From Escherichia phage flopper: a stretch of DNA of 52,092 nt. This document shows, one piece after another, positions 1,287 through 50,143 of this stretch; position 1 is the stretch's first letter, and each line of letters starts with the position of its first letter. Both the position numbers and the translations under genes were made by a program. The notes under the pieces are model-generated. The model was given only the letters and a program-made list of their open reading frames with translations, was not told the DNA's origin and ran no database searches. Location: the sequence record NC_048845.1; one strand, given 5' to 3'.

Positions 1287-1685
1287 TTATGCTGGAAGTT
1301 CGAAGTGCGGTGCGTCGAGGAACTTGGCCCATTTCACTGGCTTAGTGAAGGTCCGTTCCCATGTTCCGCCCCAACGAATAACAACTCCAAGCTCTTCTGC
1401 GGCTTTGAACATATGTTCAGCCACAGTTTGGAATCGTTCGAGGTCATTCCAGTCAATTGGATATGGTGCAATATCTAAAGCATTGCCTGACATGTGTCGG
1501 CTAACTGAAACTTTGGTTGCACCCTTCATTAACAGCTCTTGCTGACGCTCATAAGTGCGCAATCCTTCAAGAACAGTTACATCAAACGGCATTGTTTCAC
1601 ATGCACGCTTGAAAACTGCTACCAATGAGGGATTTACACCTTTGAGTCGGTCAAGTGAACGTTGGCCCAGTTTGACGTTAGACAT
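1287..1685 (-). CDS. peptidase M15-family peptidoglycan hydrolase (L-alanyl-D-glutamate peptidase-like)
   Basis: 132 aa with the SxHxxGxAxD zinc-binding signature (SRHMSGNALDIAP) and a size typical of small phage M15 endolysins; no signal peptide. Confidence 0.65.
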   Translation of the reverse strand: MSNVKLGQRSLDRLKGVNPSLVAVFKRACETMPFDVTVLEGLRTYERQQELLMKGATKVSVSRHMSGNALDIAPYPIDWNDLERFQTVAEHMFKAAEELGVVIRWGGTWERTFTKPVKWAKFLDAPHFELPA

Positions 1686-1947
1686 TTTTCAACTCCTGGT
1701 CCAAAGTTTCTTGCAGTGTTGCAAGTAAATTCTCAAGTGTTTCAACACGCTTTTCCAGTTCAGCAAGACGGTCTTCCTGAATCTGGATAAACTGTGCACG
1801 ATTCATTGAAAACCAGATATTGTCTGTGAACAGCTGGATTTCTTCGGACGTTGAGCCTTGCTCTTTCAGTGTTTTTACACGTTCTGAGTGAGTTGCAAGC
1901 TCTTGTTTTGCTGCCTCAAGATGGTCAGCTAGTTCTTCAACTTTCAC
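1678..1947 (-). CDS. hypothetical coiled-coil protein
   Basis: 89 aa with heptad-like Leu/Glu-rich sequence. Confidence 0.45.
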   Translation of the reverse strand: MKVEELADHLEAAKQELATHSERVKTLKEQGSTSEEIQLFTDNIWFSMNRAQFIQIQEDRLAELEKRVETLENLLATLQETLDQELKNV

Positions 1948-2170
1948 GGAATGGATTTCCTGTTGGGTTGATGGTTAATTTAAAAGATACAAGCTCCCGA
2001 TTGATTTCGGTTGTTCCTTCTACTGTGGCTGTAGTCAGAATAGCTGCATCTTTCCCTACTCGCTCCAAGAATTTAACTACTCGGTCGCGAATTACTGACC
2101 AGTGACGATATTCGCAACTGGATTCAAGTAAGTACGGTACTCCATCAATGGTAAATTCGGATGACGTCAT
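1937..2170 (-). CDS. hypothetical protein
   Basis: 77-aa ORF, same-strand packing. Confidence 0.4.
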   Translation of the reverse strand: MTSSEFTIDGVPYLLESSCEYRHWSVIRDRVVKFLERVGKDAAILTTATVEGTTEINRELVSFKLTINPTGNPFRES

Positions 2171-2517
2171 TTAACTTCCTTACAATATGTTGATAACAGT
2201 GGAAATTTGGCATGAAAGAAGTCAATGTCACGATAAATCTGTAGCACTAAACGTTCCTCAGCGTCAACACCAACTAAAGCCAGCTTACTGCTCTGTGTGT
2301 TATAGAACACTGTGGACATTGGGTTAGGATTCCCGTTATCTGGAACCTCAATCCAAGTACCTTCGTGCAAAGAAATTGTTGCAATGAGTGGCTGGCTCAT
2401 TGTAATTGTTTCAACGGACATTTTATATCCGCCACATTGAAAGTTTCGGACAGATGCTTCCGATTTGAATGCGAACACTCCAAATAAGATTGTCAGTGCA
2501 ATGTATAAAGTTTTCAC
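2167..2517 (-). CDS. hypothetical secreted protein
   Basis: N-terminal signal-peptide-like segment MKTLYIALTILFGVFAFKSEA followed by a polar domain. Confidence 0.5.
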   Translation of the reverse strand: MKTLYIALTILFGVFAFKSEASVRNFQCGGYKMSVETITMSQPLIATISLHEGTWIEVPDNGNPNPMSTVFYNTQSSKLALVGVDAEERLVLQIYRDIDFFHAKFPLLSTYCKEVK

Positions 2518-2705
2518 GGAATTAATGCCTCTGAACTATTTTAGATACAGTGTGTAACTTACCTTTATAAAGAATTGCACACCCAACTGTAATAAATTGT
2601 GTATTAAGTGTTGAAATTGGCTCGTCAACACCTTCAAGATAAATATCCCACATAAATCCTCCAATAATTAATCGAGGCCACTCGAAGTGGAATGACCTCT
2701 GTTAA

Positions 2706-3422
2706 TTACAGCTTCTTGATAAGCTCTGCGGATTTGCTTGCGGCAGCTTTCATTTCATCGCGTGCGGCTTTAGTGATTGATGCCTTGTCCACGCGAATGT
2801 TGCAGTTGCTGATTGCAATCTTGCCATCTTCTGTCGGTGCAAGCTGGGATAGTTCCAGCATTTGCTCCAGCTTTTGCAGAAGAATACGTTGTGCTTCAAT
2901 TGCATTTTGAATATTTAGAGTTTCCATAACTGCTCTTACCTTTCTTGAATAAGTTCCAGATAATGTCAGACGTACTTGCAAACCTTTTACGCCATCATAG
3001 TCAATATTGACTTTGTTGAATGGAGAATTTGGATGCTTGTACACATTTGTAACAGTTGCCCAATTGGCGTTGTACCAAATAACATCACCAACTTCCACAT
3101 CTTTTCCGAGAACATCTTCTTCATCGGATACTTTCTGCTTATTGAACTCTTCTACAGGAAGGAATACTGGAGTTACTATTGGAGTTATTTGGTTGGAAAA
3201 CTCAATTGTTGGAGTTTCCGAAGCTGGTGGCCTGTCCAACACTTTGACTATGCGCTCAAACTCAAAATTGTAATATCCACCAGAATATTGGAGTTGAACT
3301 ACAGAACTAAATCGTACAACCCTTTCAATTAAATATTCTCTGTTGCTGTATACTAGTACGTCCCCAGCTTTAACTAAATTGGCAGGTATTTCGACAAATT
3401 TATTTGCCATGATATTCCTCAC
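2706..3422 (-). CDS. hypothetical protein
   Basis: 238-aa ORF; start ambiguous (ATG at 3422 or 3410). Confidence 0.5.
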   Translation of the reverse strand: MRNIMANKFVEIPANLVKAGDVLVYSNREYLIERVVRFSSVVQLQYSGGYYNFEFERIVKVLDRPPASETPTIEFSNQITPIVTPVFLPVEEFNKQKVSDEEDVLGKDVEVGDVIWYNANWATVTNVYKHPNSPFNKVNIDYDGVKGLQVRLTLSGTYSRKVRAVMETLNIQNAIEAQRILLQKLEQMLELSQLAPTEDGKIAISNCNIRVDKASITKAARDEMKAAASKSAELIKKL

Positions 3423-3531
3423 GCATTGTTGAACAGTGTTTGCACACCCAAATGGTTACATAATCGTTTTCGTGTGAAATTTCCCAATTATGTAGCCCTA
3501 TAAAACATAGAATTTTCATAGGGCATCTCCA

Positions 3532-3906
3532 TTAGAACGGAATGTCGTCGTCGAAGTCTTTCGGCTCGTTCGGGTTGTAGTTGCTCTGCTGTTGTTGCTG
3601 AGCAGGTGCTTGCTGTTGTGCAGAAGGTTGCTGACGTTGCTGTTGCTGTTGAGCGGCAGCTTGAGGTTGAGCTTTGGCTTTAGCCTTCTCTTCACGCTTA
3701 CGCATCATTTCATCAACCTGTTCCTGAGTCATGATGGTTAATGCAAGTGAGGTAAACTCATTACCATTTGCTTGCTTGTTCCAACCAGATACCCAATACC
3801 AGATTCCGTCAACGTTAATACGCCCACGAATGTCGGGATGTTTTGGGTCTTTCTTGAAGCCGTTAGGACCGATGATGCCAGTGTTTACATCTGAATATTG
3901 TGCCAT
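3532..3906 (-). CDS. small SSB-like protein with SSB C-terminal tip
   Basis: 124 aa; Gln-rich linker and C-terminus NEPKDFDDDIPF, matching the E. coli SSB tail (...MDFDDDIPF); the N-terminal domain is only ~65 aa. Confidence 0.55.
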   Translation of the reverse strand: MAQYSDVNTGIIGPNGFKKDPKHPDIRGRINVDGIWYWVSGWNKQANGNEFTSLALTIMTQEQVDEMMRKREEKAKAKAQPQAAAQQQQQRQQPSAQQQAPAQQQQQSNYNPNEPKDFDDDIPF

Positions 3907-3982
3907 GATTAAGATTCTCTTAAGTTAATTACAGTTTAAGTTTCAGCGACATTGCTAACCACGGAATAGCTTTGTCCCTCTT

Positions 3983-4000
3983 ATCCAACTAATTGGATTA
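3983..4000 (-). promoter_or_regulatory. conserved intergenic motif copy upstream of the SSB-like gene
   Basis: TATCCAACTAATtgGAtt about 77 nt upstream of the start at 3906. Confidence 0.35.
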
Positions 4001-4031
4001 TTCGGGTACACTCGTAAATGCACCCTGATAA

Positions 4032-4565
4032 TCACTCAGATACAAATTTCTCAAACCTCGCTACTACAGCAGGGTCAAACAGGTTAAAACAAGGTATTCC
4101 AGACTGCACTGCAACCTGATATGCAGTGTTGGTGCCTCCGCTCACACCAGTTGATGTTGTCGGAGCATACAAGATACAGAACTTGGATGGGGTGTCTAAG
4201 TTAAGCCCAAGTACCTGACTAACATTTCGTGCCTGTAGTTTCCAAAATCCTCTGTATTTGTCGAGGTTTCTTGTCTCTTTCTTGTGAATTAGTGGGTTTA
4301 CGTTTTCAACACTTTGCAGGTATTCCCAATTTCGATTCAGGTCCGGCACTACGCCACCATAACTTCCAAAACCATTCCAAGGTATAAAGTTCTCTGTCCT
4401 TCCGTTGCAGCCAGCCAGGAATGCTTCGTCAGCACCTTGAGCACCTCCCGTACGAACTACCCAACCAAGTCTGGCCAGTTTGGAAGCCACTTTAGTCAGC
4501 AGTTCGCAAATATGCCCGGGAGTTTCACGACTTCCCACACCAGTGTAAAACATAAATACCTCCAA
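4032..4565 (-). CDS. SLOG/DprA-like Rossmann-fold protein
   Basis: GVGSRETP...(n)...VVRTGGAQGADEAF resembles the GxGSR...SGGAxGxD motif of the DprA/Smf/YpsA superfamily. Confidence 0.5.
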   Translation of the reverse strand: MEVFMFYTGVGSRETPGHICELLTKVASKLARLGWVVRTGGAQGADEAFLAGCNGRTENFIPWNGFGSYGGVVPDLNRNWEYLQSVENVNPLIHKKETRNLDKYRGFWKLQARNVSQVLGLNLDTPSKFCILYAPTTSTGVSGGTNTAYQVAVQSGIPCFNLFDPAVVARFEKFVSE

Positions 4566-4580
4566 AAGTTGTTATTCACA

Positions 4581-4597
4581 CTCAACTAATGTTAGAT
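4581..4597 (-). promoter_or_regulatory. conserved intergenic motif copy
   Basis: CTCAACTAATGTTAGAT 16 nt upstream of the start at 4565. Confidence 0.35.
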
Positions 4598-4632
4598 TAA
4601 TCAGGAACACTCAATGAATGCTCCTTGTTAAT

Positions 4633-4920
4633 TTACATCATCTTTGAAATTGGAATTGGGTCCATGTTTGATTCAGGTTTATACCAACTGACTTCGCCAG
4701 AATCTTTCACAAGTTCCCAATTATCGGAGAATGTACGATAACATAAATTGCGGTTATCGTCATTAACGACAAAACCCAAAGGAGATTGAATATACGCACC
4801 GAGTGTACCGTTGTTACGAGGAACTCCGTCACCACGACCTGCGACGATTTTGTATTTCTTGCCGCTGGTAAAGTTGTAGTTTGTTTTACCAACATAACGT
4901 AAGACTGAATTCTTGTTCAT
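4633..4920 (-). CDS. hypothetical protein
   Basis: 95-aa ORF. Confidence 0.45.
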   Translation of the reverse strand: MNKNSVLRYVGKTNYNFTSGKKYKIVAGRGDGVPRNNGTLGAYIQSPLGFVVNDDNRNLCYRTFSDNWELVKDSGEVSWYKPESNMDPIPISKMM

Positions 4921-5150
4921 TGCTTTAGTTTCTCCAAAGCGGATAATACGGAATCTCCAGAACCACTAATCACAAGCGTTTCTCCTGGAAGATTGTAGGA
5001 TATGTAAGAGAACGTCCATTTTACAATAGTTCTCTGATACGATGAGCTGTATTTATCAGACAGCTCTATATCTTGCCTTGCATCGTTTAGCAAGAACTCC
5101 TGCCCATTGATGGTCAGTTGCTTAAACATTTCGATATAATTCTTACCCAC
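4917..5150 (-). CDS. hypothetical protein
   Basis: 77-aa ORF with 4-nt overlap to its neighbour. Confidence 0.4.
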   Translation of the reverse strand: MGKNYIEMFKQLTINGQEFLLNDARQDIELSDKYSSSYQRTIVKWTFSYISYNLPGETLVISGSGDSVLSALEKLKQ

Positions 5151-7336: not shown

Positions 7337-7530
7337 TTTATTCTCCTAAGTTAAAGAAAACTCCCTACAGAACGATTGTGGAGGTCTTGTCTTACCTCAA
7401 TCCACCTTAAAGTTGTAGGGAGTATGTGACACAGCAAGTGCCGAAGAACTACAATGATTAGCTTGGAGACATAATCTCTCTAAAATCTGTCACACAATTT
7501 CAGCAGAGTTTACAGAGATTTGGTCTTATT

Positions 7531-8360
7531 CACATGCAACTAATGATAAATGGACATGCTTAATTGCAACTAATTCATCTGCCAAATAGACGAATTTTGT
7601 CACAATTAAACATGCGTCATTAATTACAGGTTTACTCCCACACTTAACGTATTTGGCACATTAAGATTGGAGCAAGCAGGTACGGAAAACCGACCATGTA
7701 CAGCATAATAAAACTAATTAAATAAAGGGTTTTATCCCAATATTGTCACAATATTACATGCGATGATAAAGCCTTCGCTTGGCTGGAAGCCAGTATTCAT
7801 GCGGGTTGCAAGAATATTGGGTCAATACTGATACAGCTATTACATGCGAAATTGGCACAAATACTGTTACAAAATTAACATGCCAGATTGGTAGACGATT
7901 GTATCTTCGAGGTGATTAGTCCTCTAACAATTCTGCCACATTCCAACATGCCAATTTGTAGCAATATTTACATGCCATACTGCGACAATATTGTCACAAT
8001 ATTTGTTGCTCAAAATCGGGCGGGCTACGGGATTAGTTTCGCGGCTTTGCTCCGACTCTTCTCTTCTTTCGAATTCTGATTGAAAGAAAGAAGCATGTCC
8101 AAAAGTTCCAATATTACAAAAGTTATCTCCCGGCTTGTGGGTGGGCCTTTATAATAGGAGATGGAGCAATATTGTCGCAATTGAACATGCTTTAGTTGAA
8201 GAACAGTTTCGGATGATAATCCTACTTCACACATGGTTGCTGGAACTTTGTCCGGCCAAAGACAGGGAGTTCAATGATTGCCACATCATTACAACACTGT
8301 ATGTTTAGTTGACATGCTGAAATGTTTCTAGAATGATTTCAACATGACATGCGGAATACT
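7531..8360. repeat. cluster of at least 12 ACATGC half-site repeats in a non-coding region (candidate origin/regulatory region)
   Basis: Plus-strand ACATGC (often as ttACATGC / aACATGCc) recurs about 12 times in ~830 bp, plus aatattgtcacaatatt-type elements and a hairpin cttctttc-N11-gaaagaag near 8058-8095. Confidence 0.5.
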
Positions 8361-8381
8361 TCTCCGTATTCTGTTACTTCA

Positions 8382-8402
8382 CATCCAACTAATGTTACAG
8401 AT
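8382..8402 (-). promoter_or_regulatory. conserved intergenic motif copy at the edge of the ACATGC-rich region
   Basis: CATCCAACTAATGTTACAGAT. Confidence 0.35.
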
Positions 8403-10652: not shown

Positions 10653-10722
10653 TTGTAAGTCTCCAAGATTGTGTATGATTTAACTGAAACGGATTATAAT
10701 AGCGTAGCCATTACACAATTCA

Positions 10723-10740
10723 CAACCAACTAATATCACA
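10723..10740 (-). promoter_or_regulatory. conserved intergenic motif copy (candidate phage-RNAP promoter) upstream of the RNAP gene
   Basis: caACCAACTAATatcaca matches the repeated cacATCCAACTAATGTTtCAGA family. Confidence 0.35.
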
Positions 10741-10899
10741 AACCTGTGCCATTGTTACAACAGCACGGAGACTTTGACCTTGACTCATAAGCGAAGCGCC
10801 TAACTTGGTGTTATCATTAAGCCGATAGGCTGTAGAAAAAGTTGGGTAGGGACCGTATTTTAAGTCCGATAGGACGTTGGGCTTCCCCTCCTCGCCGCC

Positions 10900-11115
10900 T
10901 CAAAAAATAAAAATTAATATTGCCACAATTCTAGTCTCGTTAATATTGAAACAATTTGAGTCTCATTAATTCTGTAGCAATATTGAAAATAAAAAAAAAA
11001 ATTATAAAAAAAAATTATTTCATAGTCGGACTTCTGTTCGAACAAATTTCGGCGAGATACAGCTGACCGACCATGAACGAATTTCTATCCAGGTACAGTT
11101 GACCGACCATGTACC
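10900..11115. repeat. A-tract plus 13-bp direct repeats between nrdB and the RNAP gene
   Basis: aaaaaaaaaattataaaaaaaaattattt (about 10981-11010); tgaccgaccatg x2 (about 11063-11075 and 11100-11112); tagcaatattg elements. Confidence 0.45.
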
Positions 11116-11259
11116 ATTTGGTTTTAACTTTACGCATTCCTAATATTACTCTTAATATTGTAGCAATATTGGGAATAAATAAATATTTAATTTACTTGTT
11201 TTATTCTAGTTCAAAGAGAAACGACGCTAACGCATCGAATCTCTTCTCACATTTAATCG

Positions 11260-12360
11260 TTAAAGCTCAAATCCACCCAGAGCATTGGTGTCCACTTCGG
11301 AATCAATCTGCCCAACAAGGTACGAACTAATCTCCGTTTCTTGTGGAGCAACCTGTACAGCATCCGAATTCAACCATGCGTTAATCCAAGGAATCGGGTT
11401 AGTAGCACCTTTGAATGGAGCATCCAATCCAACTGCTTGCATACGAATATTTGTGATATATTCCACATATCCGCACAGAATTTGCTTGTTTAAGCCAATC
11501 ATTGAGCCATCTTTGAACAAATAATCAGCCCAATCTTTCTCTTGTTGGGCCACATTTTCGAACATTAGTTGGCATTCTTGGCGACATTCTTTAGCAATTT
11601 CGGCCATTTCTGGGTCATCAACACCACTTGCAAGAAGGTTCAGCATGTGTTGAGTTCCGGTCAAATGGAGTGCTTCATCACGAGCAATTAGGCGAATAAT
11701 CTTGGCATTTCCTTCCATTAACTTGCGTTCAGCGAAGGCAAATGAGCAAGCAAAACTGACGTAAAAGCGAATTGCTTCCAGCGCATTAATGGACATGAGG
11801 CATAAATACAGCTTCTTCTTAAGCTCACGAAGAGAAACTTTATCTTCATGCAGATGCCACATGGAAGTTAGATGTTGAAGCTCGTCATAATATTGGGAGA
11901 TGCCGATTGCACGCATTTTAATGTGCTCATTCTCCACAATTTCATCGAAAATTACACTTGGGTCTGTCACGATATTACGGATAATATGCGTGTAAGAGCG
12001 AGAGTGAATTGTCTCTGAGAATGACCAAGTTTCAATCCAAGTTTCCAGTTCAGGAATGCTCACAATTGGTAGCAAAACTGTAGTTGGTCCACGTCCCTGA
12101 ATGGAATCAAGGAGGATTTGATAGCGCAAGTTGCTTGTGAAGATGTGCTTCTCGCATTCAGGCAGACCAGCATAGTCAATTCGGTCCTGACTAACATCAA
12201 CCTCTTCAGGTCGCCAAAAGAATGATAACTGCTTCTCAATTAACTTCTCGAAGATGCTATACTTCTGTTGGTCGTATCGAGCAACGTTAACGTTCTGACC
12301 AAAGAACATTGGTTCTAATAGTTGGTTATTCTTGGTTTGTGAAAAGGTAGTGTAAGCCAT
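11260..12360 (-). CDS. nrdB: ribonucleotide reductase class Ia small subunit (R2)
   Basis: 366 aa closely resembling enterobacterial NrdB along its length (by recollection; identity not computed); ATG overlaps the upstream stop as TAATG. Confidence 0.9.
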
Positions 12361-12914
12361 TACAGATTTCCTAGATACTCATAGAATTTATGGCCACCAT
12401 AACGTCCCAAACCTTTAACATTCTTGAAGTTGCACTTCTCTGATGCTGTACAAAAGTGGGTTGCTTTGGTGACAGAGGGTTGATTAAATAATACAAAAGA
12501 GATTGCAACATTAATGGTGTCCAGAACTTGTTGTTGTTCTGTGGCATAATTAATCTTTGCTACATGCTTCCATTGAGCATTCTTCTTCTTTGCTTCTCGT
12601 GTCCATGCAAATTGATTGCGTTGATAGACAACATCACAAACGGTGTTAGCGAATGGCTTCCCGAACTCTGTTCTATTACGGACGACATTAGCTACCAGAA
12701 TCTTTCCATGTTTGTCTTCTCCGCGAGCTTCATACCAGATAACTTTAGTATAGCATTCTAGCTCTTTTCGTTGTGAAGAAGATAGTTTCAGACTTCCATT
12801 TAAATAAGAATGACTTGCAAAATCTGTAATAGCAGAATTCACTGCCCCAACCGAAGCTGGGGCGTTGATGTGAACTAAAGCTGTCAGAACTGCAAGGACT
12901 TTGAATGATAGCAT
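12360..12914 (-). CDS. SleB/CwlJ-family cell-wall hydrolase with N-terminal signal sequence (probable endolysin)
   Basis: YEARGE...G...VANVVRNR...QFAW hydrolase_2-like motifs; hydrophobic N-terminus [24 protein letters not shown]; directly downstream of the holin. Confidence 0.7.
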
Positions 12915-12931: not shown

Positions 12932-13273
12932 TCATCGTGCCTTCTTGAACCACGTCAAAGGATTAAGTTGTTTGATTGCGCCAGAGAAACTTTCCCTGAC
13001 AGTTGTGATAATGAGGTTTGCACCGATGACACCAATCACAATAGCCAGAACTAGCTGCATAGTGACGTTAGTCGTGAAGGTTTCAAATGTGCCAGCAACA
13101 TGAAAGGCAAACAAGCCGATTAAGCTGCACAGCGCCGCATCCAGCAGCGCCTTGCTCAAGCCTTCACTTTCATATGCCCCACGGATTAAGGCCGTCAGAC
13201 CGGCCAATAGCCCGTGCCATACGCCGTATTGGTGCATCAGGTCCACAAACATCTGAATGGATAAGCGTTCCAT
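12932..13273 (-). CDS. class I holin (lambda S-like)
   Basis: 113 aa from the internal ATG at 13273 with AAGGA RBS; IRGAYESEGLSKALLDAALCSLI parallels lambda S [23 protein letters not shown]; several TM segments. The longer ORF to 13381 would overlap the fibre gene. Confidence 0.65.
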   Translation of the reverse strand: MERLSIQMFVDLMHQYGVWHGLLAGLTALIRGAYESEGLSKALLDAALCSLIGLFAFHVAGTFETFTTNVTMQLVLAIVIGVIGANLIITTVRESFSGAIKQLNPLTWFKKAR

Positions 13274-22126: not shown

Positions 22127-22154
22127 TGCAATATACCTATTGAAATTAATACAT

Positions 22155-22172
22155 ATTCAACTAATGTTAAAG
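22155..22172 (-). promoter_or_regulatory. conserved intergenic motif copy (candidate phage promoter)
   Basis: ATTCAACTAATGTTaaAG lies between the tape-measure stop and the next start, just downstream of the hairpin at 22179..22192. Confidence 0.35.
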
Positions 22173-22198: not shown

Positions 22199-25100
22199 TT
22201 AACGTCTTTGTTGCGCACCGTTGTTCATGTTCATTTGTTGAGTCACAGTCTGACCACCAGGAATTGCAACTGTAGCAGAAGCAGTCTGGTTGTTGACCTT
22301 AGCATCAATCTTAACATTAACAACAGTTTGGGTTTGACCGTATGACATTCCATTACGAGTAAACCCTGTAGCACCTTCTTCCAGAGATTGAGAAGACTTG
22401 GACCATTCACGGAATGCTTTGACGCGATTCTGTGCTTGTACAGGAACAGCAGTCAGCCAATCCAATCCATTCTTATCAACAGCTTTGTCAACAGTGCCAG
22501 GACCATCTGTGTAAGCAGCCATTGCCTTTTCGTGGTCGCCATAACGCTTGTACATTGCGTCATAGTATTCACGACCAACTCGCGCATCATCTTCTGGAGT
22601 TCCATCAGACGGCCTGATTCCAAATCCTGGGTCACGGGCAGTCGAAGGGAGAATCTGCATTATCCCACGAGCACCAGTTGGACTTGTTACACGAGAACCA
22701 TCTTTGTTGTATTCACGACCGCCAGATTCCTCTTGGGCGATAAAGTCGTAAACATTTCCAGCAAATTCTCGCGTCTTATTCAGTCCAGTGCGTACACCGT
22801 CAAGTGCATCACTGCCAGCCTCAAATACAGAAGCACCATTAGATAAGACACTTTGTGGCACGTTGTAGCTTGGCAGCATCCGTGCGCGGCTTCCCTGCAA
22901 CATTTCCGATTGGGCCATACCTTCGGCAAAGTCGGAGTTTCTACCCGCTTCTACCACCGAACCAGCTTGCTCATGGCTGTATTCCGTGCGGTCATAGGCT
23001 CGCGCCATCCCATTCAGGCCAGCCATTTCAGCAGCACCTGCGATACGGGCCTGACTCCAGCCACGCTCCTTGCCCCTTTCCTGCATGATGCGAGCCAGGG
23101 CCACAGGGTCGCCGCCTGTCGCACGAATATCACCTATGGTGAGCAATCCCCTACTGCCGCGAACGATGTTCACAGCGGCGCTGGGGTCGCCGTTAAGCAT
23201 GGTGTTGTAGGCACTATGTGTGGTTTGATTCAGACGTGCCGCTTGTTGTGAATTGAGTCCTAACATCTCCAAGCCTTGCGACATAGAAGAATATTCATTA
23301 GGATTTATCACACCAGCATCAAGCGAGTTGCCGATAAAGTCATTCATGTATTCAGCAGCTTCATTGCCAATCTGAATGGCACCAATGCCTACGGCAGCCA
23401 TACGTCCCGCAGGAGTTGCCATCAATGCTTGCATAACTCCGTTGGTTGCTGAACCAATACTGCCACCAGCAATACCAGCAGCTAGTGAACCACCCATGCG
23501 ACCGTAGTCATCATAGTAGTTGCCACCACTTGTGAAGTTGCCGCCACGACCACCGCCACCGCCAGAATATCCACCGCCATTGGCAGCGTCAAATCTCTCA
23601 CGGTTCCAGCCCATTGAATCAGCTTTGCCGTCAAAGTCTGCATCTGCACCGATACCTTTCTGCCTGTTTTCTTCCTGAGCAGCAAGGATACCTTTCTTAA
23701 CAGACAATGCCATCGAGTCATTTCCGGTGTCACCATTACCAGTGGTTGCCGGAAAGTTTTGCTCGTGCAATACAAAGTTTGGCTTGTAGTCAGAGTAGGA
23801 TGCTTCTGGATTGTACGAAGAACGCGAACCAATAAACGGGTCTTCTGGGGTACCAGCAACAGCAGAATAGCCACGAGTAGACTTTTGACGAATATCTTTC
23901 CAGATTCCATCACCAGTCATTGCACTTCTTGCACCAGCAATCAGCTCTTCTCGCCCTAATCCAGCATTGTTTCTAACAAACTCTCGCCCAGCATCAAGAC
24001 GGCCAAGCACAGAATCAAGGCGATTTCGGTTTCTCTCGTACCATCCTTCGTCCTTCTCAATCCATTGTGAACGTGTTTCGTCGTTGATGGTTTGTGAGAA
24101 CAAAGCACGAGAACGGCCAGAAACGTGCATACCAAATTGAATTTGGTCCATGTAGTCTGGATGGTCGCCTTTAAGAAGGTCAGCAAACTTACCAGCCCTT
24201 TGCGGATTCTTGTGCTCCCAAATGGCATCATCCCCAATAAGACCATCAGGAGAATACATGAAGGCGGGATAGTTGTCATTTGTTATAGCGCCAGTTTGTT
24301 TGATATCAAATCCAAATTCCTTACTAACACGAGCGCGTGCTTCTTCTTCCGTCCTGTGACCATCAGCGAACATCTTCTTGGTGAAATCGCTGTGCTCTTT
24401 ACTACGAGATAGGCCAATCTTATCAATCATACCGGCCCAAGGTCGGGTGTATGGGTTGTTTCCTAAGAAGGTCCCAACAGTTGAGCCAGTTATGTCATAA
24501 TTTTTACGGAAGTCTAGCCACTCTTGGCTGCCCTGTTCTAAGTCGTGGAATCGGACGGGGGACTTGGAACGTCCTGTGCCATAGTCTGATACATCACGGA
24601 ATCCAGCACTATCCATGTTTGCAATCGCAAGTTCCTCGCGACGCATTCTTGCAGAGTTCCAATTGGTGGCCTCTCCAAGTTGTGCTGTAAAATCTGTAGA
24701 TGTTGACAGTGAATCTTTATCGACTCGCTGTGAAGCTCCCTTCATCTTTGGAATGCGAACAGGTTCGGCATCCATTTTATCATAAGTGTTTTCGAGGATG
24801 GCTCGAACACTTGATGCAGAATAAGCTGGCTCATCTGCAAGTTCAGAACGAAGGTTTTCGTATCCGCTTCTGGCTTCTTCCAAATCCGTGTAGCGTGTTG
24901 CACTATCAATAATCATGTCACGGTCAGATACTTCGTGACGAGTATTCAGCATCCCTTTGGAGCCAGAATAAACTTTGGCAGCAGATTTAACAGCTTCACT
25001 AATAGAAGAATACAAAGCCTTGCTTGGTGCACTCCAACCAGTGCCACCAGTTAATGATGCAGTGAGGGAGTATTCTGGATTTATGCCAGAACCATAAGAG

Positions 25101-25924
25101 CCAAGTGGTAGTCCAGATGCGTTAAGAGGTGCACGAGGATGCGCAATGCCAGAAACAATTGAAGGAGAACCAATCTGAGGGAGTGCATCCATGTAAGAAA
25201 TATGTGGGGCCGATTTATTTCCTACATTAGATGCGGATGTATACCCAACTTCCTTAAAGGCTGAGGGTAACTCTCGTTCCAGACGTTTGGCAACTCGACT
25301 AATGTCTCTTGCGTATTGTTCATGATTGCTGTATTGCTCACGGTCAACATACATGTGAGCCATGTAGTTATAGGAGTCAGCAATGTTTCCACGGTTGGTG
25401 GAGTATTCTGCCATAATATCCCCAGCATAGTGACCTGGGATTTCTGGCATAATGTCTTGATGCCCTTGCAAAGTATCTCGCATATAGGCATTAAGCATGT
25501 TGAAGTTACCTTGCGGTAAGTTCGGATTTGGCTTCGGCATGTGCATCCACACATCATCTGTGCTAACGCCAAGCCTTTCCATGTATGCGTGAACAGCTTC
25601 TACATGGTGTGATGGGCCATTCATTGCTGCATGAAATGCTTCTGTGTAGCCAGCACTTGAAAGCACTTGTGCAATGTGGGCAGCGTCTGAAATCATGGAA
25701 GAGTCACCCAAAGATTCAGTAATCAAACTGTCATCTTCGAACGACCCACCCATTAATTCTGCATTTGTATCCAGCCATCCCGAAGCAGCGCTCGCACTAA
25801 GTTGTTGAACCATGTGCGACTTCTTCATACCAGCATGGAAAGTCAGACCGCTTTGAGAGCCTAATGCAATTAACTCATTAACGCTCAACTTCATTAAATC
25901 TTTTTGATTAGCCATTGTCTTCAT
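22199..25924 (-). CDS. tape-measure-like multi-domain virion protein (nuclease + hydrophobic segment + SLT lytic transglycosylase)
   Basis: 1241 aa in the tape-measure position; aa ~460-575 QEWLDFRKNYDITGSTVGTFLGNNPY...SPDGLIGDDAIWEHK (YqaJ/lambda-exo-like); aa ~780-860 Gly/Ala-rich hydrophobic stretch; aa ~1055-1160 ESGGREYN...GIMQILPSTA...YY (SLT-like). Confidence 0.7.
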   Translation of the reverse strand: MKTMANQKDLMKLSVNELIALGSQSGLTFHAGMKKSHMVQQLSASAASGWLDTNAELMGGSFEDDSLITESLGDSSMISDAAHIAQVLSSAGYTEAFHAAMNGPSHHVEAVHAYMERLGVSTDDVWMHMPKPNPNLPQGNFNMLNAYMRDTLQGHQDIMPEIPGHYAGDIMAEYSTNRGNIADSYNYMAHMYVDREQYSNHEQYARDISRVAKRLERELPSAFKEVGYTSASNVGNKSAPHISYMDALPQIGSPSIVSGIAHPRAPLNASGLPLGSYGSGINPEYSLTASLTGGTGWSAPSKALYSSISEAVKSAAKVYSGSKGMLNTRHEVSDRDMIIDSATRYTDLEEARSGYENLRSELADEPAYSASSVRAILENTYDKMDAEPVRIPKMKGASQRVDKDSLSTSTDFTAQLGEATNWNSARMRREELAIANMDSAGFRDVSDYGTGRSKSPVRFHDLEQGSQEWLDFRKNYDITGSTVGTFLGNNPYTRPWAGMIDKIGLSRSKEHSDFTKKMFADGHRTEEEARARVSKEFGFDIKQTGAITNDNYPAFMYSPDGLIGDDAIWEHKNPQRAGKFADLLKGDHPDYMDQIQFGMHVSGRSRALFSQTINDETRSQWIEKDEGWYERNRNRLDSVLGRLDAGREFVRNNAGLGREELIAGARSAMTGDGIWKDIRQKSTRGYSAVAGTPEDPFIGSRSSYNPEASYSDYKPNFVLHEQNFPATTGNGDTGNDSMALSVKKGILAAQEENRQKGIGADADFDGKADSMGWNRERFDAANGGGYSGGGGGRGGNFTSGGNYYDDYGRMGGSLAAGIAGGSIGSATNGVMQALMATPAGRMAAVGIGAIQIGNEAAEYMNDFIGNSLDAGVINPNEYSSMSQGLEMLGLNSQQAARLNQTTHSAYNTMLNGDPSAAVNIVRGSRGLLTIGDIRATGGDPVALARIMQERGKERGWSQARIAGAAEMAGLNGMARAYDRTEYSHEQAGSVVEAGRNSDFAEGMAQSEMLQGSRARMLPSYNVPQSVLSNGASVFEAGSDALDGVRTGLNKTREFAGNVYDFIAQEESGGREYNKDGSRVTSPTGARGIMQILPSTARDPGFGIRPSDGTPEDDARVGREYYDAMYKRYGDHEKAMAAYTDGPGTVDKAVDKNGLDWLTAVPVQAQNRVKAFREWSKSSQSLEEGATGFTRNGMSYGQTQTVVNVKIDAKVNNQTASATVAIPGGQTVTQQMNMNNGAQQRR

Positions 25925-30213: not shown

Positions 30214-31221
30214 TCAGATGCCGGAGTTGATAGAGATTGCTGCCGGATACATCGCTTGGAAGCCAGCAAAACGACCACGGCCAGGAACTTCATAAACCAG
30301 ACCATGAAGCTGTACCGGTTGCCAGGTCAGCGGCAGAGGTTCACGCAGACGGAAAGTGCGGTTGCCCATTGCATTGCGGCAAACAACAACGAAGCAATCA
30401 GAGCCAGCATCGCCGTGACCTTTGATTGCGTTCAGACCCTTGATTTTATCGCGGGAGTTGATGAACTGGTTGTTGTCAATGAAGAATTGACCAATCGTCT
30501 TATCAGACTGCTCAGAACGTGCAGTGTTGAAGATGTACTGCTCATGCTCAACAGGCATCCAGATTTCGTCTGGGCGCATGATTTTCAGAGTGGAAGCATA
30601 CATTGCAGACACAGCAGTGGTCAGGTCAGCAATAACTTCGGTCGGAGTCTTCTCGGCCCACTTGGTAGAACCCCCAGCACCAGCAGCAACAGTTGCTTTG
30701 GTAATGTCTGGGTTTTCGAAGAAGCCAACAAAGCCGTTAGCTTTATCGCCGTACCATGCAGCAGAGTTAACATACTGCTCGTAACCACGAATAGCAGCAT
30801 TTGCTTTGCGAGTTTCCAGCGGGAGGCCAGTAACAGCAGCGGATGCCACTTCATCAATATCGTAGTCGAATGCAGTACCAACAGATTTAACAGGGATACT
30901 GTATTCTTTACCAGAAATGCTGGACTTCGGCAGGTCGGTTGCACGGGCGTTAATTACCTGAGCTTTACCAACATGGTTGTAAGAACGGTAGGTAAGAGTG
31001 TTTACGCCAGCACCACCAGTAGTGTCCACACCGAAAGCAGCACGAGCTTCCAGTTCTGGATACAGAGTGTCGTAAGTTTGAGCTTCAATGTGCTCAAGCT
31101 GGCGTTGAAAGAATACTGCATCGTCGTCATTCAGGACAACAGTGCCAGAATCCTGAATACGGGTGATAGCGTCGTTCAGTTCGAATTCAGAACCGTCCGC
31201 CAGTTTAATCATCTTAGGCAT
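30214..31221 (-). CDS. major capsid protein
   Basis: ~335 aa between the decoration/Ig genes and the neck genes; start set to ATG 31221 (the track ORF starts at TTG 31254). Confidence 0.65.
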   Translation of the reverse strand: MPKMIKLADGSEFELNDAITRIQDSGTVVLNDDDAVFFQRQLEHIEAQTYDTLYPELEARAAFGVDTTGGAGVNTLTYRSYNHVGKAQVINARATDLPKSSISGKEYSIPVKSVGTAFDYDIDEVASAAVTGLPLETRKANAAIRGYEQYVNSAAWYGDKANGFVGFFENPDITKATVAAGAGGSTKWAEKTPTEVIADLTTAVSAMYASTLKIMRPDEIWMPVEHEQYIFNTARSEQSDKTIGQFFIDNNQFINSRDKIKGLNAIKGHGDAGSDCFVVVCRNAMGNRTFRLREPLPLTWQPVQLHGLVYEVPGRGRFAGFQAMYPAAISINSGI

Positions 31222-31276
31222 GTAAATTAATCCGTTTTGTTTGGTGGGGCGCAACTATTAATTGCGCCATCACAAC

Positions 31277-31705
31277 TTAAGACTTCGGCGTAATAGCAAT
31301 CTCTTTAGTTGCAGTCACGCTGGAGGTTGTTTTGTTTGTTGCCTTAACCGTGGCAGAGGTATCGGTAGTTGTCTCATTTAAGACGGTTACAGTACCATTT
31401 GCAGCCACAGAAACGCCAGTCACAGGAGGCGTAATAGCGTAGGTGTAGTCTGTTGCTGTAGAGTTACCAAACTTAAACAGTTTGTCTACAGTTACAGTGG
31501 CATCAGTAGAAGACGCATCAGCCGTTACAACTCCATCTACAGCAGACACCGTAGGTGCAGGAGGCTTAGGCTTAATCGTAATCTGTTTGGATGCAGTTAC
31601 GCCAGACTCTGTTTTATTTGTTGCCTTGATTGTCGCAGAAGTGGCTGTAGTCGTTGCACTGAGTACAGTCACAGTGCCGTTTGCCGCCACAGAAACACCA
31701 GTCAC
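31277..31705 (-). CDS. Ig-like (BIG-type) tandem-repeat domain protein
   Basis: Two near-identical ~48-aa repeats (VTGVSVAANGTVTVL...ATNKT...) with a third copy upstream in the same frame, open to 31870 without ATG/GTG/TTG. Confidence 0.55.
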   Translation of the reverse strand: MTGVSVAANGTVTVLSATTTATSATIKATNKTESGVTASKQITIKPKPPAPTVSAVDGVVTADASSTDATVTVDKLFKFGNSTATDYTYAITPPVTGVSVAANGTVTVLNETTTDTSATVKATNKTTSSVTATKEIAITPKS

Positions 31706-31851
31706 GGGAGGTGTAACAGCGAAGTTATAATCTGTTGCCGCAGAGTTCTCAAACTTAAACAGTTTGTCTACAGTTACAGTTGCATCAGAGGCAGATGCGT
31801 CCGCAGTTAAAGCCCCTGCAACAGCAGATACTGTAGGAGCTGGAGGTGGCG

Positions 31852-32325
31852 TTACGGCTTTGGGACTACGTTAATCATGACCGGGACAACATCACCAGCG
31901 GAAGCCGGATAACGCAGGGCAGTCAGGTTGGTTGCTTTAGTATAACCAGCACCAACGCCACCAAATTCACCTTTAGTGGATACGCCGATGTTCTTGTCGG
32001 TGATTGCGGTTTTCAGTTTGACCATGATTGGGCCAGACAGCATAACACCCAGGGGCCAGCCAACTTTAATAGCAACAGTGCCGTCACCAGGACGAGTAGC
32101 AGATTCGATGTTAAGCTGGCGCATGGTAATGCCCAGAACAGTGCCGTCAGCCTCAATACCAGGCTTAACCTGATTAGAAGCCGTGCCTTGAACAACAGCC
32201 AGACCAAAGTTTGCCATTTCTTCTTCGGCAACGTAAGTCAGGCGCTGGGAGTTGGTGGTAGCCAGGCCATATTGTTCACCTGCATATGCTTCACCAGTAT
32301 TAATAGACCAATCTTGCTTTGGCAT
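31852..32325 (-). CDS. head decoration / accessory capsid protein (zero-frame product)
   Basis: 157 aa ending ...VVPKP with slippery C_CCA_AAG two codons before the stop. Confidence 0.5.
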   Translation of the reverse strand: MPKQDWSINTGEAYAGEQYGLATTNSQRLTYVAEEEMANFGLAVVQGTASNQVKPGIEADGTVLGITMRQLNIESATRPGDGTVAIKVGWPLGVMLSGPIMVKLKTAITDKNIGVSTKGEFGGVGAGYTKATNLTALRYPASAGDVVPVMINVVPKP

Positions 32326-42139: not shown

Positions 42140-42412
42140 TTAATCGACTTGCAACACAGCAAGACGGAAGTCATATCCAACTAATGCTTCGGTCAGCTCT
42201 TCAATTGAAGACGTTGCCGAAATTAATGTTTGGATGTTTTTGAATGTCTCATCATTAAATGCTTGAGACTGTGGGTCAGACGAAGCGAATACTTTGTCCT
42301 TAATCTTTTCAAGGAACGCCATTACAGCGTCCTTTGCAGGAACTTCGGAATCAGCAGCAAACATATGATGCTCTAATTCCTGCATATCGAAAATTGAATA
42401 TACAGTTTGCAT
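42140..42412 (-). CDS. hypothetical protein
   Basis: 90 aa; its 3' end carries a copy of the conserved motif (42175..42192). Confidence 0.4.
   Translation of the reverse strand: MQTVYSIFDMQELEHHMFAADSEVPAKDAVMAFLEKIKDKVFASSDPQSQAFNDETFKNIQTLISATSSIEELTEALVGYDFRLAVLQVD
42175..42192 (-). promoter_or_regulatory. conserved motif copy (candidate phage promoter) inside the gene end
   Basis: ATCCAACTAATGcTTCgG about 66 nt upstream of the start at 42109. Confidence 0.3.
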
Positions 42413-46179: not shown

Positions 46180-46830
46180 TTATTCCTGGTTGGTCAGAGC
46201 CTTCCAACAAATTGGGAACAGTTCTGACATGATTTTATTCACTTCTTCCGCAAACAAGCGAACTTCGTATTGCGCATGTTCGGAGGAACGTTGATTATAC
46301 ATAGATGCCCAGCCATAAAGTGAGCCAGTCCAAATCCATTCAGTCATCATGGATTGTGGAAGAACCATGCGAGCTTGCTCTGGGGCAATCCCCAAACCAA
46401 TTAACGTTTCATACTCTGCGATGCAAGCCTTGTTATGACTTTCCATGCGATAATGAATATCGTCAGCAAAATCTTGTGGCAACGGTTGTGCAGTCTGAGT
46501 CATCAACTTCTCAGGACGACCGAGTACAACATCTGGTACAAAGCATTCAATCGAGATTGCTTCACCATCTTTGTAACGACGGCTAACCTCATTCCAACTA
46601 AAGCCAGTTTGATGTTTGCCGAGCTGACGTGCAATGAAGATTGGAGCTTTGCAACGCAATGTTACCTGTGCGTGGCGAAACGGCGTAATGTGCTTATGCT
46701 TTGCAAGAAACTCAATCAGCCTCTCGTCACGTAAAGATATTTCATGCGATTCTGCACCATAAGAAACTCGTGCAGCATTAACAGTTGTGAGGTCGCTGCC
46801 CATGTGGTCAACGAGTGTTGCAGTAATCAT
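46180..46830 (-). CDS. thyX: flavin-dependent thymidylate synthase (ThyX-like)
   Basis: 216 aa with ThyX-like core (FRHA...ARQLGKHQTGFSWNEVSRRY); the RHR motif is slightly degenerate. Confidence 0.7.
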   Translation of the reverse strand: MITATLVDHMGSDLTTVNAARVSYGAESHEISLRDERLIEFLAKHKHITPFRHAQVTLRCKAPIFIARQLGKHQTGFSWNEVSRRYKDGEAISIECFVPDVVLGRPEKLMTQTAQPLPQDFADDIHYRMESHNKACIAEYETLIGLGIAPEQARMVLPQSMMTEWIWTGSLYGWASMYNQRSSEHAQYEVRLFAEEVNKIMSELFPICWKALTNQE

Positions 46831-50042: not shown

Positions 50043-50122
50043 TTGTATATACCTTATATTGAATAGTTTTGCACGCCACGGTGACGTGACTTAGATAAAA
50101 ATTAAAGAGCCTTTCTCTTTCC

Positions 50123-50143
50123 ACATCCAACTAATGTTTCAGA
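50123..50143 (-). promoter_or_regulatory. conserved intergenic motif copy (candidate phage promoter)
   Basis: CATCCAACTAATGTTTCAGAA about 80 nt upstream of the start at 50042, preceded by an imperfect hairpin ctgattcgt-caa-acgactcag. Confidence 0.4.

Follow-up and report, generated by a model that had tools for sequence, protein, structure and literature searches.

A class Ia nrdB gene without nrdA behind the endolysin gene of Escherichia phage flopper, and its probable partner in the host

A complete class Ia ribonucleotide reductase (RNR) is encoded by nrdA and nrdB, and the genome of Escherichia phage flopper (NC_048845.1), whose 52,092 nucleotides constitute the window analysed here, carries only the second of these genes. 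The question raised by this locus is what a phage may gain from the radical-bearing small subunit (beta, R2 or NrdB) of an enzyme whose catalytic subunit (alpha, NrdA) it does not encode. The gene lies at 11260..12360 on the minus strand and encodes 366 amino acids followed by a stop codon. It is present and intact, its catalytic residues are complete, it is under purifying selection, it is specific to its genus, and no gene for an alpha subunit accompanies it. We consider it probable that the product is a functional class Ia small subunit, encoded by an auxiliary metabolic gene and working with the NrdA of the host; the timing of expression, the binding to host NrdA and the benefit to the phage are what we infer from the sequence.

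The original prediction described the protein as host-like, closely resembling enterobacterial R2, and both family models and alignments bear this out. The protein matches PF00268 (Ribonuc_red_sm) in Pfam with E=2e-48 and scores 698 bits with the NCBIfam equivalog model NF006576 ('class Ia RNR subunit beta'), for which the cut-off is 346, whereas it reaches only 98 bits with the class Ib NrdF model TIGR04171 (cut-off 355) and 26 bits with the R2lox model NF006198 (cut-off 274). Against the chains of solved E. coli R2 structures the match has E=1e-199. In a pairwise alignment with NrdB of E. coli K-12, 300 of the 366 aligned residues are identical (82%) and the register is kept from Met1 to the C-terminal Leu; among the cellular NrdBs tested this is the most similar, those of other Enterobacterales and of Vibrio standing at 77-80%. 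The six iron ligands (D84, E115, H118, E204, E238 and H241, in E. coli numbering) are identical, and W48, D237, E350 and Y356 are conserved, including the radical-transfer residues W48, D237 and Y356. The radical tyrosine Y122 is conserved as well, as Tyr123 of the phage protein, with its codon at 11992..11994 on the minus strand (TAC, which reads GTA on the plus strand), so that all the radical-site residues checked in the alignment are present. An AlphaFold2 model obtained from a 28-sequence alignment, with a mean predicted local distance difference test (pLDDT) of 58 and a predicted template modelling score (pTM) of 0.64, was too poor for a fold search and was dropped, the match to the solved E. 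coli R2 being far stronger evidence. In public records the product of this gene appears as 'class 1b' in OL741059.1 (SKA49) and with an 'NrdF' note in NC_010106.1 (phiEcoM-GJ1); given that the model scores show a class Ia NrdB, these labels are mislabels.

The absence of a partner nrdA, also part of the original prediction, was upheld by two approaches. With the NrdA proteins of E. coli and of phage vB_CsaP_009 as queries, tblastn of the window returned only noise (best E=0.49 over 33 amino acids), and in a census of open reading frames (ORFs) the six that reach 550 amino acids are all assigned to other functions, including a T7-like RNA polymerase (RNAP), the terminase, a family A DNA polymerase (PolA), a primase-helicase and a tail protein of 1,241 amino acids. 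A complete class Ia RNR, with nrdA and nrdB in one genome, is thus not encoded in the window. Searched with tblastn, neither the window nor the 3' flank of nrdB yielded a YfaE-like ferredoxin or an nrdA remnant, and in the RefSeq annotation of ST32, a close relative, glutaredoxin, thioredoxin, flavodoxin and other accessory RNR genes are all missing. Other enzymes of DNA precursor synthesis are encoded by these phages, namely ThyX in the window (46180..46830) and a dUTPase in the ST32 annotation. With these results the earlier observation stands confirmed in every detail, the only addition being the strand, which it had left unstated.

If the catalytic partner is to come from the host, the contact between the two subunits matters, and this contact is made by beta's C-terminal tail, a peptide of which has been co-crystallised with alpha (PMC11447812). 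The C-terminal 20 residues of the phage protein, encoded at 11263..11322 on the minus strand and comprising the equivalent of Y356 together with the alpha-binding tail, are identical to those of E. coli at 15 of 20 positions. A set of 115 non-phage NrdB homologues served as the comparison for this tail and for the hairpin discussed below. Eight tail positions are invariant in all 115 (Y356, L357, G359, Q360, I361, D362, F373 and L375), and the phage keeps all eight of them; the five differences from E. coli are each found in some of the homologues, with A369 and G371 being rare (6/115 each). The retention of Y356 and of the alpha-binding tail would make sense only for an RNR beta subunit. Pairing of the phage NrdB with host NrdA is the simplest mechanism and, judging from these residues, most likely the correct one, being the best-supported reading. 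Since nrdB was found in all 5,426 of 5,426 complete E. coli genomes, with nrdA adjoining it in K-12, the proposed host partner should always be available.

The most conspicuous change in the phage protein lies elsewhere. Between D173 and K174, at 11839..11844 on the minus strand, the alignments place a deletion of 10 amino acids, which removes most of a beta-hairpin (approximately residues 171-184 in E. coli). The segment 168-187 of E. coli NrdB, which we take to contain this hairpin, is exactly 20 amino acids long in 115 of the 115 non-phage homologues. Its length is 16 amino acids in GJ1-type alleles, approximately 13 in FXie-2024a and 10 in the window, ST32 and Mangalitsa, corresponding to cuts of 4, 7 and 10 residues. 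A second case was found in the Serratia jumbo phage PCH45 (MN334766.1), where an nrdB at 30783-31889 of the extracted locus L019 encodes a protein 80% identical to that of E. coli with its hairpin cut by 9 amino acids; tblastn of the entire 212.8-kb genome of PCH45 revealed no NrdA. Taken together, the genus of the window phage and PCH45 provide two independent orphan copies that lack a segment of fixed length in the 115 non-phage homologues. The shortening could be either relaxed constraint or adaptation. Both the shortening in these phages and the standing of PCH45 as a second nrdB-only lineage appear to be new, if modest, additions to what has been described.

Other records with an nrdB near to these in kind were also noted. 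In the Pantoea phage Survivor (locus L012, 3495-4879) nrdB is directly followed by a YfaE-like 2Fe-2S ferredoxin, as in the 3' half of the bacterial nrdAB-yfaE arrangement, and there is no nrdA at the locus; in the Edwardsiella phage pEt-SU (locus L015, 3501-4631) nrdB is without an adjoining nrdA, an observation that concerns the locus only. A divergent nrdB is also carried by 202 E. coli plasmid records. In the one plasmid inspected, pECOPRAWN_FPGL2 (locus L016), nrdA (1536-3851) is followed by nrdB (3957-5099) and by a pyrophosphohydrolase-thyA-HAD-dfrA51 cluster; this arrangement is typical of SSU5-like phage-plasmids, and it is a paired case and no orphan.

The altered hairpin and tail lend themselves to a different reading, in which both are adaptations of a modulator: the phage beta would replace host NrdB on NrdA and alter the regulation of the enzyme; it might weaken formation of the alpha4beta4 ring that arises under inhibition by deoxyadenosine triphosphate (dATP), or outcompete the host beta. 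A hairpin that is invariant in 115 of 115 homologues and yet was cut by 4, 7 and 10 amino acids in three allele types of Carltongylesvirus, the genus of the window phage, and by 9 in PCH45 is what such a reading would lead one to expect, as are the rare tail substitutions A369 and G371. The one beta residue that the literature names as entering the cone-domain pocket in the inhibited ring is I297 (PMC11447812), however, and its motif DGSMIGLNK is unchanged in the phage protein and lies away from the hairpin. The idea that the hairpin deletion removes the beta surface of the ring was accordingly rejected as unsupported, I297 being the only residue named in the literature that was found, and both conserved and located elsewhere. 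A contact between hairpin and alpha is likewise unsupported, and the shortening could reflect relaxed constraint combined with genome economy. We therefore regard modulation of the host enzyme as unlikely, while giving it some weight. A bolder version, which we think rather improbable, would make the orphan phage NrdB a tuned replacement that captures host NrdA and alters its control, perhaps yielding a hybrid resistant to dATP feedback or one no longer dependent on a cellular partner of NrdB, and that arose independently in Carltongylesvirus and in PCH45.

The distribution and evolution of the gene bear on whether it is maintained. The window is a complete, circularly permuted genome of Carltongylesvirus (Chaseviridae), approximately 52 kb long, with every gene on the same strand. 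Phage vB_EcoM_Bp10 has an NrdB 100% identical to that of the window, the NrdBs of ST32 and Mangalitsa are approximately 99% identical to it, and the gene is found in 44 public Carltongylesvirus records at a protein identity of at least 90%, always after the endolysin gene. The alleles of GJ1 and of the Yersinia phages encode 372 amino acids, are approximately 91% identical to the window NrdB and have a hairpin cut by only 4 residues. The gene is an ordinary genome feature that was already annotated, and the nrdB-only state had been tabulated for the type phage, phiEcoM-GJ1: the RNR beta subunit is the last ORF of ST32 and phiEcoM-GJ1 (PMC6266442), and phiEcoM-GJ1 is one of two nrdB-only phages in the table of Dwivedi et al. 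(2013), who called it unknown whether incomplete sets work (PMC3653736). By contrast, nrdB is absent from PP101, 4HA13, Myduc and Faunus, which stand for four sister genera in the subfamily and end with holin and endolysin. Homology to the sister genera breaks off inside the endolysin gene and is found again from approximately 280 nucleotides past the nrdB stop, just short of the genome end, which indicates that nrdB and a short 3' flank form a genus-specific insertion. The gene is a lineage-specific accessory gene of the auxiliary metabolic or moron-like kind, with its closest cellular relatives in the Enterobacterales.

The acquisition is an old one. GC content at third codon positions (GC3) is 0.41 in the window nrdB, approximately 0.40 in the rest of the phage and 0.63 in E. 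coli nrdB; synonymous sites are saturated in comparison with E. coli nrdB, with a proportion of synonymous differences (pS) of approximately 0.88, and nucleotide identity to nrdB in the 5,426 complete E. coli genomes is approximately 70%. A recent transfer from E. coli was rejected on the grounds of GC3 and of this saturated synonymous divergence, and the gene is compositionally ameliorated. In a neighbour-joining tree the phage clade has a long branch and groups with other phage NrdBs, apart from the Enterobacterales clade of cellular proteins, and the transfer may have taken place by way of another phage. The comparison of the window with phiEcoM-GJ1, in which the synonymous substitution rate (dS) is 0.86 in nrdB and 0.09 in the adjacent endolysin gene, indicates that two old allele families, of 366 and 372 amino acids, recombine independently of their flanks and implies a recombination breakpoint near the endolysin/nrdB junction.

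Among the five alleles compared (window, Mangalitsa, FXie-2024a, GJ1 and PYps16N), pairwise ratios of non-synonymous to synonymous substitution rates (dN/dS) range from 0.025 to 0.086, with dS up to 0.86. Purifying selection on nrdB is strong, and at least equal to that on the neighbouring endolysin gene. These values bear on the view that nrdB is a decaying passenger, either left over from an earlier nrdAB operon or captured by accident and without function, for which one could cite the absent partner gene, the position at the very end of the genome, a place where accessory DNA often gathers, and the internal deletion relative to cellular NrdB. Low dN/dS over such synonymous distances is not what decay would leave behind, and the frame is intact in all 44 records, the catalytic residues are all kept, each deletion preserves the frame and the N-terminus aligns with that of E. 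coli NrdB from the first codon on; we hold a decaying passenger to be very improbable. Hardly any probability attaches either to a catalytic subunit that went unrecognised among the many small phage ORFs of no known function, as no unassigned ORF of at least 550 amino acids exists and neither NrdA query has a tblastn match, or to a role outside RNR, such as that of an R2-like oxidase or in iron handling, in view of the 698 bits with the class Ia model against 26 with R2lox and 98 with NrdF and of the retained Y356 and tail.

How nrdB might be expressed can be approached from its surroundings. Directly upstream, at 12360..12914 on the minus strand, lies the endolysin gene, which encodes a SleB-type cell-wall hydrolase (PF07486 Hydrolase_2, E=1e-15; phrog_938) and is annotated as a signal-arrest-release (SAR) endolysin in relatives such as Mangalitsa; it is preceded by a lambda S-type holin gene, the first of the lysis cassette (12932..13273, minus strand; PF05106, TIGR01594, phrog_126). 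The endolysin stop TAA (12362..12360) and the nrdB start ATG (12360..12358) share one base in a TAATG sequence at 12358..12362 on the minus strand, as had been claimed for a start overlapping the stop of a SleB-family hydrolase gene; both the overlap, read directly from the sequence, and the PF07486 match upstream agree with that claim. The minus-strand sequence across this junction is AGGAAATCTGTAATGGCT, also given as AGGAAATCTGTAATG. It includes an AGGAAA Shine-Dalgarno sequence for nrdB (12367..12372, minus strand), located 6 nucleotides before the ATG and inside the endolysin gene's 3' end, and the same Shine-Dalgarno sequence is given for ORF79 in the table of the ST32 paper (PMC6266442). 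The TAATG junction is conserved in four of the five relatives compared and identical in Mangalitsa, GJ1 and FXie-2024a, while PYps16N has 2 nucleotides between stop and start instead of an overlap. Translational coupling of nrdB to endolysin termination is possible, and independent initiation from its own AGGAAA sequence is equally possible; coupling is not required, given that nrdB has a Shine-Dalgarno sequence of its own and that stop and start are separated in PYps16N.

At the level of transcription, a 19-nucleotide motif, AACATTAGTTGGATGTGAA, was found in eight copies with up to 3 mismatches, against 0.03 expected, all of them on the coding strand and mostly intergenic. A motif scan places them on the minus strand at 135-153, 4575-4593, 7529-7547, 8378-8396, 10719-10737, 22150-22168, 42170-42188 and 50120-50138, with the copy at 10719 upstream of the RNAP gene. 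A review ascribes to Chaseviridae a set of similar promoters distributed across the genome (PMC8472413), and the motif is a candidate promoter, for either the host or the phage polymerase. There is no copy of it between 22150 and nrdB, a stretch of contiguous genes, and the copy at 22150..22168 is a candidate for the start of a transcription unit that would end with nrdB. A stable stem-loop begins 10 nucleotides after the nrdB stop (11209..11250, minus strand; dG -21.9 kcal/mol, z = -4.2), its inner stem features in the list of terminator-like sites, and none of 200 shuffled sequences folds as well; it is terminator-like or may stabilise the 3' end. Given the abutting genes, the Shine-Dalgarno sequence inside the endolysin end, the lack of a motif copy from 22150 to nrdB and the hairpin after the stop, late co-expression of nrdB as the last cistron of the tail and lysis unit is plausible. 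A sigma-70 promoter for early and independent expression was considered and rejected: 7 sites were predicted against 8.2 expected, and in the lysis genes upstream of the ATG the coding strand has none. No transcriptome or promoter mapping data for Chaseviridae were found in the literature. As a separate observation, the core of the motif, ACATTAGTTGG, occurs once in antisense orientation inside nrdB (11560-11571, plus strand), without the downstream GTGAA part, and is probably a chance match.

From these elements the following course of events can be proposed. An ancestor of Carltongylesvirus would have taken up an nrdB of the Enterobacterales type, without nrdA, either from a bacterium directly or by way of another phage, and the gene would have become fixed directly after the endolysin gene, as the last one before the right terminal repeat. 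It would most likely be transcribed at the end of the late tail and lysis unit, as its last cistron, and translated from its own Shine-Dalgarno sequence, possibly in a manner coupled to endolysin termination. Host factors would assemble the diferric-tyrosyl radical cofactor of the phage protein, since the phage is devoid of a YfaE-like ferredoxin; the protein would dock on host NrdA via its conserved C-terminal tail, and the hybrid enzyme would raise or sustain the synthesis of deoxyribonucleoside diphosphates during phage DNA replication, beside the phage ThyX and dUTPase.

Several observations weigh against this proposal. A hairpin of invariant length in cellular NrdBs is largely lost, and the substitution D369A affects a tail position that is D in 107 of the 115 homologues and could change the affinity for host NrdA. 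A position in a late operon is odd for an enzyme of DNA precursor synthesis. The phage clade falls outside the cellular Enterobacterales clade, and as the tree groups it with other phage NrdBs, the tail may bear the imprint of a phage alpha subunit from a time when the gene still had its partner.

With regard to the genome end, the left physical end, which is the start of a direct terminal repeat, is predicted at position 10863, approximately 400 nucleotides downstream of the nrdB stop, as mapped from the ends of the Mangalitsa record. The repeat annotated in Mangalitsa measures 3,234 bp and begins 210 nucleotides upstream of the RNAP gene, and a direct terminal repeat has been shown experimentally in PYps23T (PMC8762354). 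The possibility that nrdB is located inside the repeat, and would thereby be present in two copies per virion and enter the cell first, was ruled out, the repeat starting approximately 400 nucleotides downstream and covering the RNAP gene; with a repeat start near 10863, nrdB is the last unique gene. The intergenic region between nrdB and the RNAP gene (10653-11259) contains iteron-like TTAATATTG repeats and a long A/T tract, as well as two copies of AG(A/G)TACAG(C/T)TGACCGACCATG that are 36 nucleotides apart; these repeats could be packaging or replication signals.

Three further observations concern other genes and records. In the 1,241-amino-acid tail protein (22199-25924, minus strand) a YqaJ-like recombinase/nuclease domain (E=9e-14) is joined by a lytic transglycosylase SLT domain, an unusual pairing in a virion protein. 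The record PP952070.1, named 'Staphylococcus phage Pel53' with Staphylococcus hyicus as its host, has 88% DNA identity to these coliphages over the whole lysis-nrdB-RNAP region, and the record is probably mislabelled as to its Gram-positive host. Lastly, P0004, a 494-amino-acid NrdB homologue at NCBI, carries the peptide VSYTHLDVYKRQ repeatedly inside duplicated stretches of NrdB; the peptide resembles what we take to be translated sequencing-adapter sequence, and the protein is presumably an assembly artefact.

If the phage beta works with host NrdA, the radical-bearing small subunit, and not the catalytic one, would be what limits the supply of deoxyribonucleoside triphosphates in infected E. 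coli. The phage protein, hairpin-less and with an altered tail, would then also be a natural and minimally altered NrdB with which to probe these elements in the best-studied RNR. The erosion of the hairpin and the existence of a second orphan lineage make the question experimentally attractive. There is a practical side to it as well: phages of this group are candidate therapeutic agents against E. coli and Yersinia, and nrdB could affect how well they perform at low temperature, when iron is limiting or in hosts that grow slowly.

Compared with known systems, the closest counterparts are phiEcoM-GJ1, ST32, Mangalitsa, Bp10 and the other members of Carltongylesvirus, which have the same gene in the same place and present no essential difference. 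The NrdB of E. coli and other Enterobacterales (PDB 1RIB, 1MXR, 6W4X) shares with the phage protein the length register, the iron ligands, Y122, W48, D237, E350, Y356, I297 and the invariant tail positions. It differs in that the phage gene has neither nrdA nor yfaE adjoining it, and in that the phage protein shows the 10-residue deletion in the hairpin between two long helices, the five tail substitutions and a phage-like composition (GC3 of 0.41 against 0.63). Phages with nrdAB operons, such as the Cronobacter phage vB_CsaP_009 and the Proteus phage Privateer, together with the SSU5-like phage-plasmids, encode NrdBs of the Enterobacterales type that are 74-75% identical to the window protein, but they have nrdA directly upstream of nrdB, and the NrdB of vB_CsaP_009, the single sequence inspected among these paired cases, has a full-length hairpin. 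PCH45 resembles the window phage in having a host-like nrdB only and a shortened hairpin, but belongs to an unrelated lineage and differs in genomic context and in its position in the tree. Outside the phages, most chordopoxviruses encode R2 only, which forms functional hybrids with host R1 via the R2 C-terminus (PMC2900304). As in vaccinia F4 and its orthologues, the phage codes for the small radical subunit alone and keeps both the catalytic residues and a host-compatible C-terminus, and in its sequence features it conforms to this virus-encoded R2-only type. The poxvirus case involves a eukaryotic virus and host and an unrelated acquisition, and there the hybrid complex and a replication phenotype have been demonstrated (PMC2900304); should the phage beta subunit work with host NrdA, it would represent the bacterial counterpart of the poxvirus R2-only strategy.

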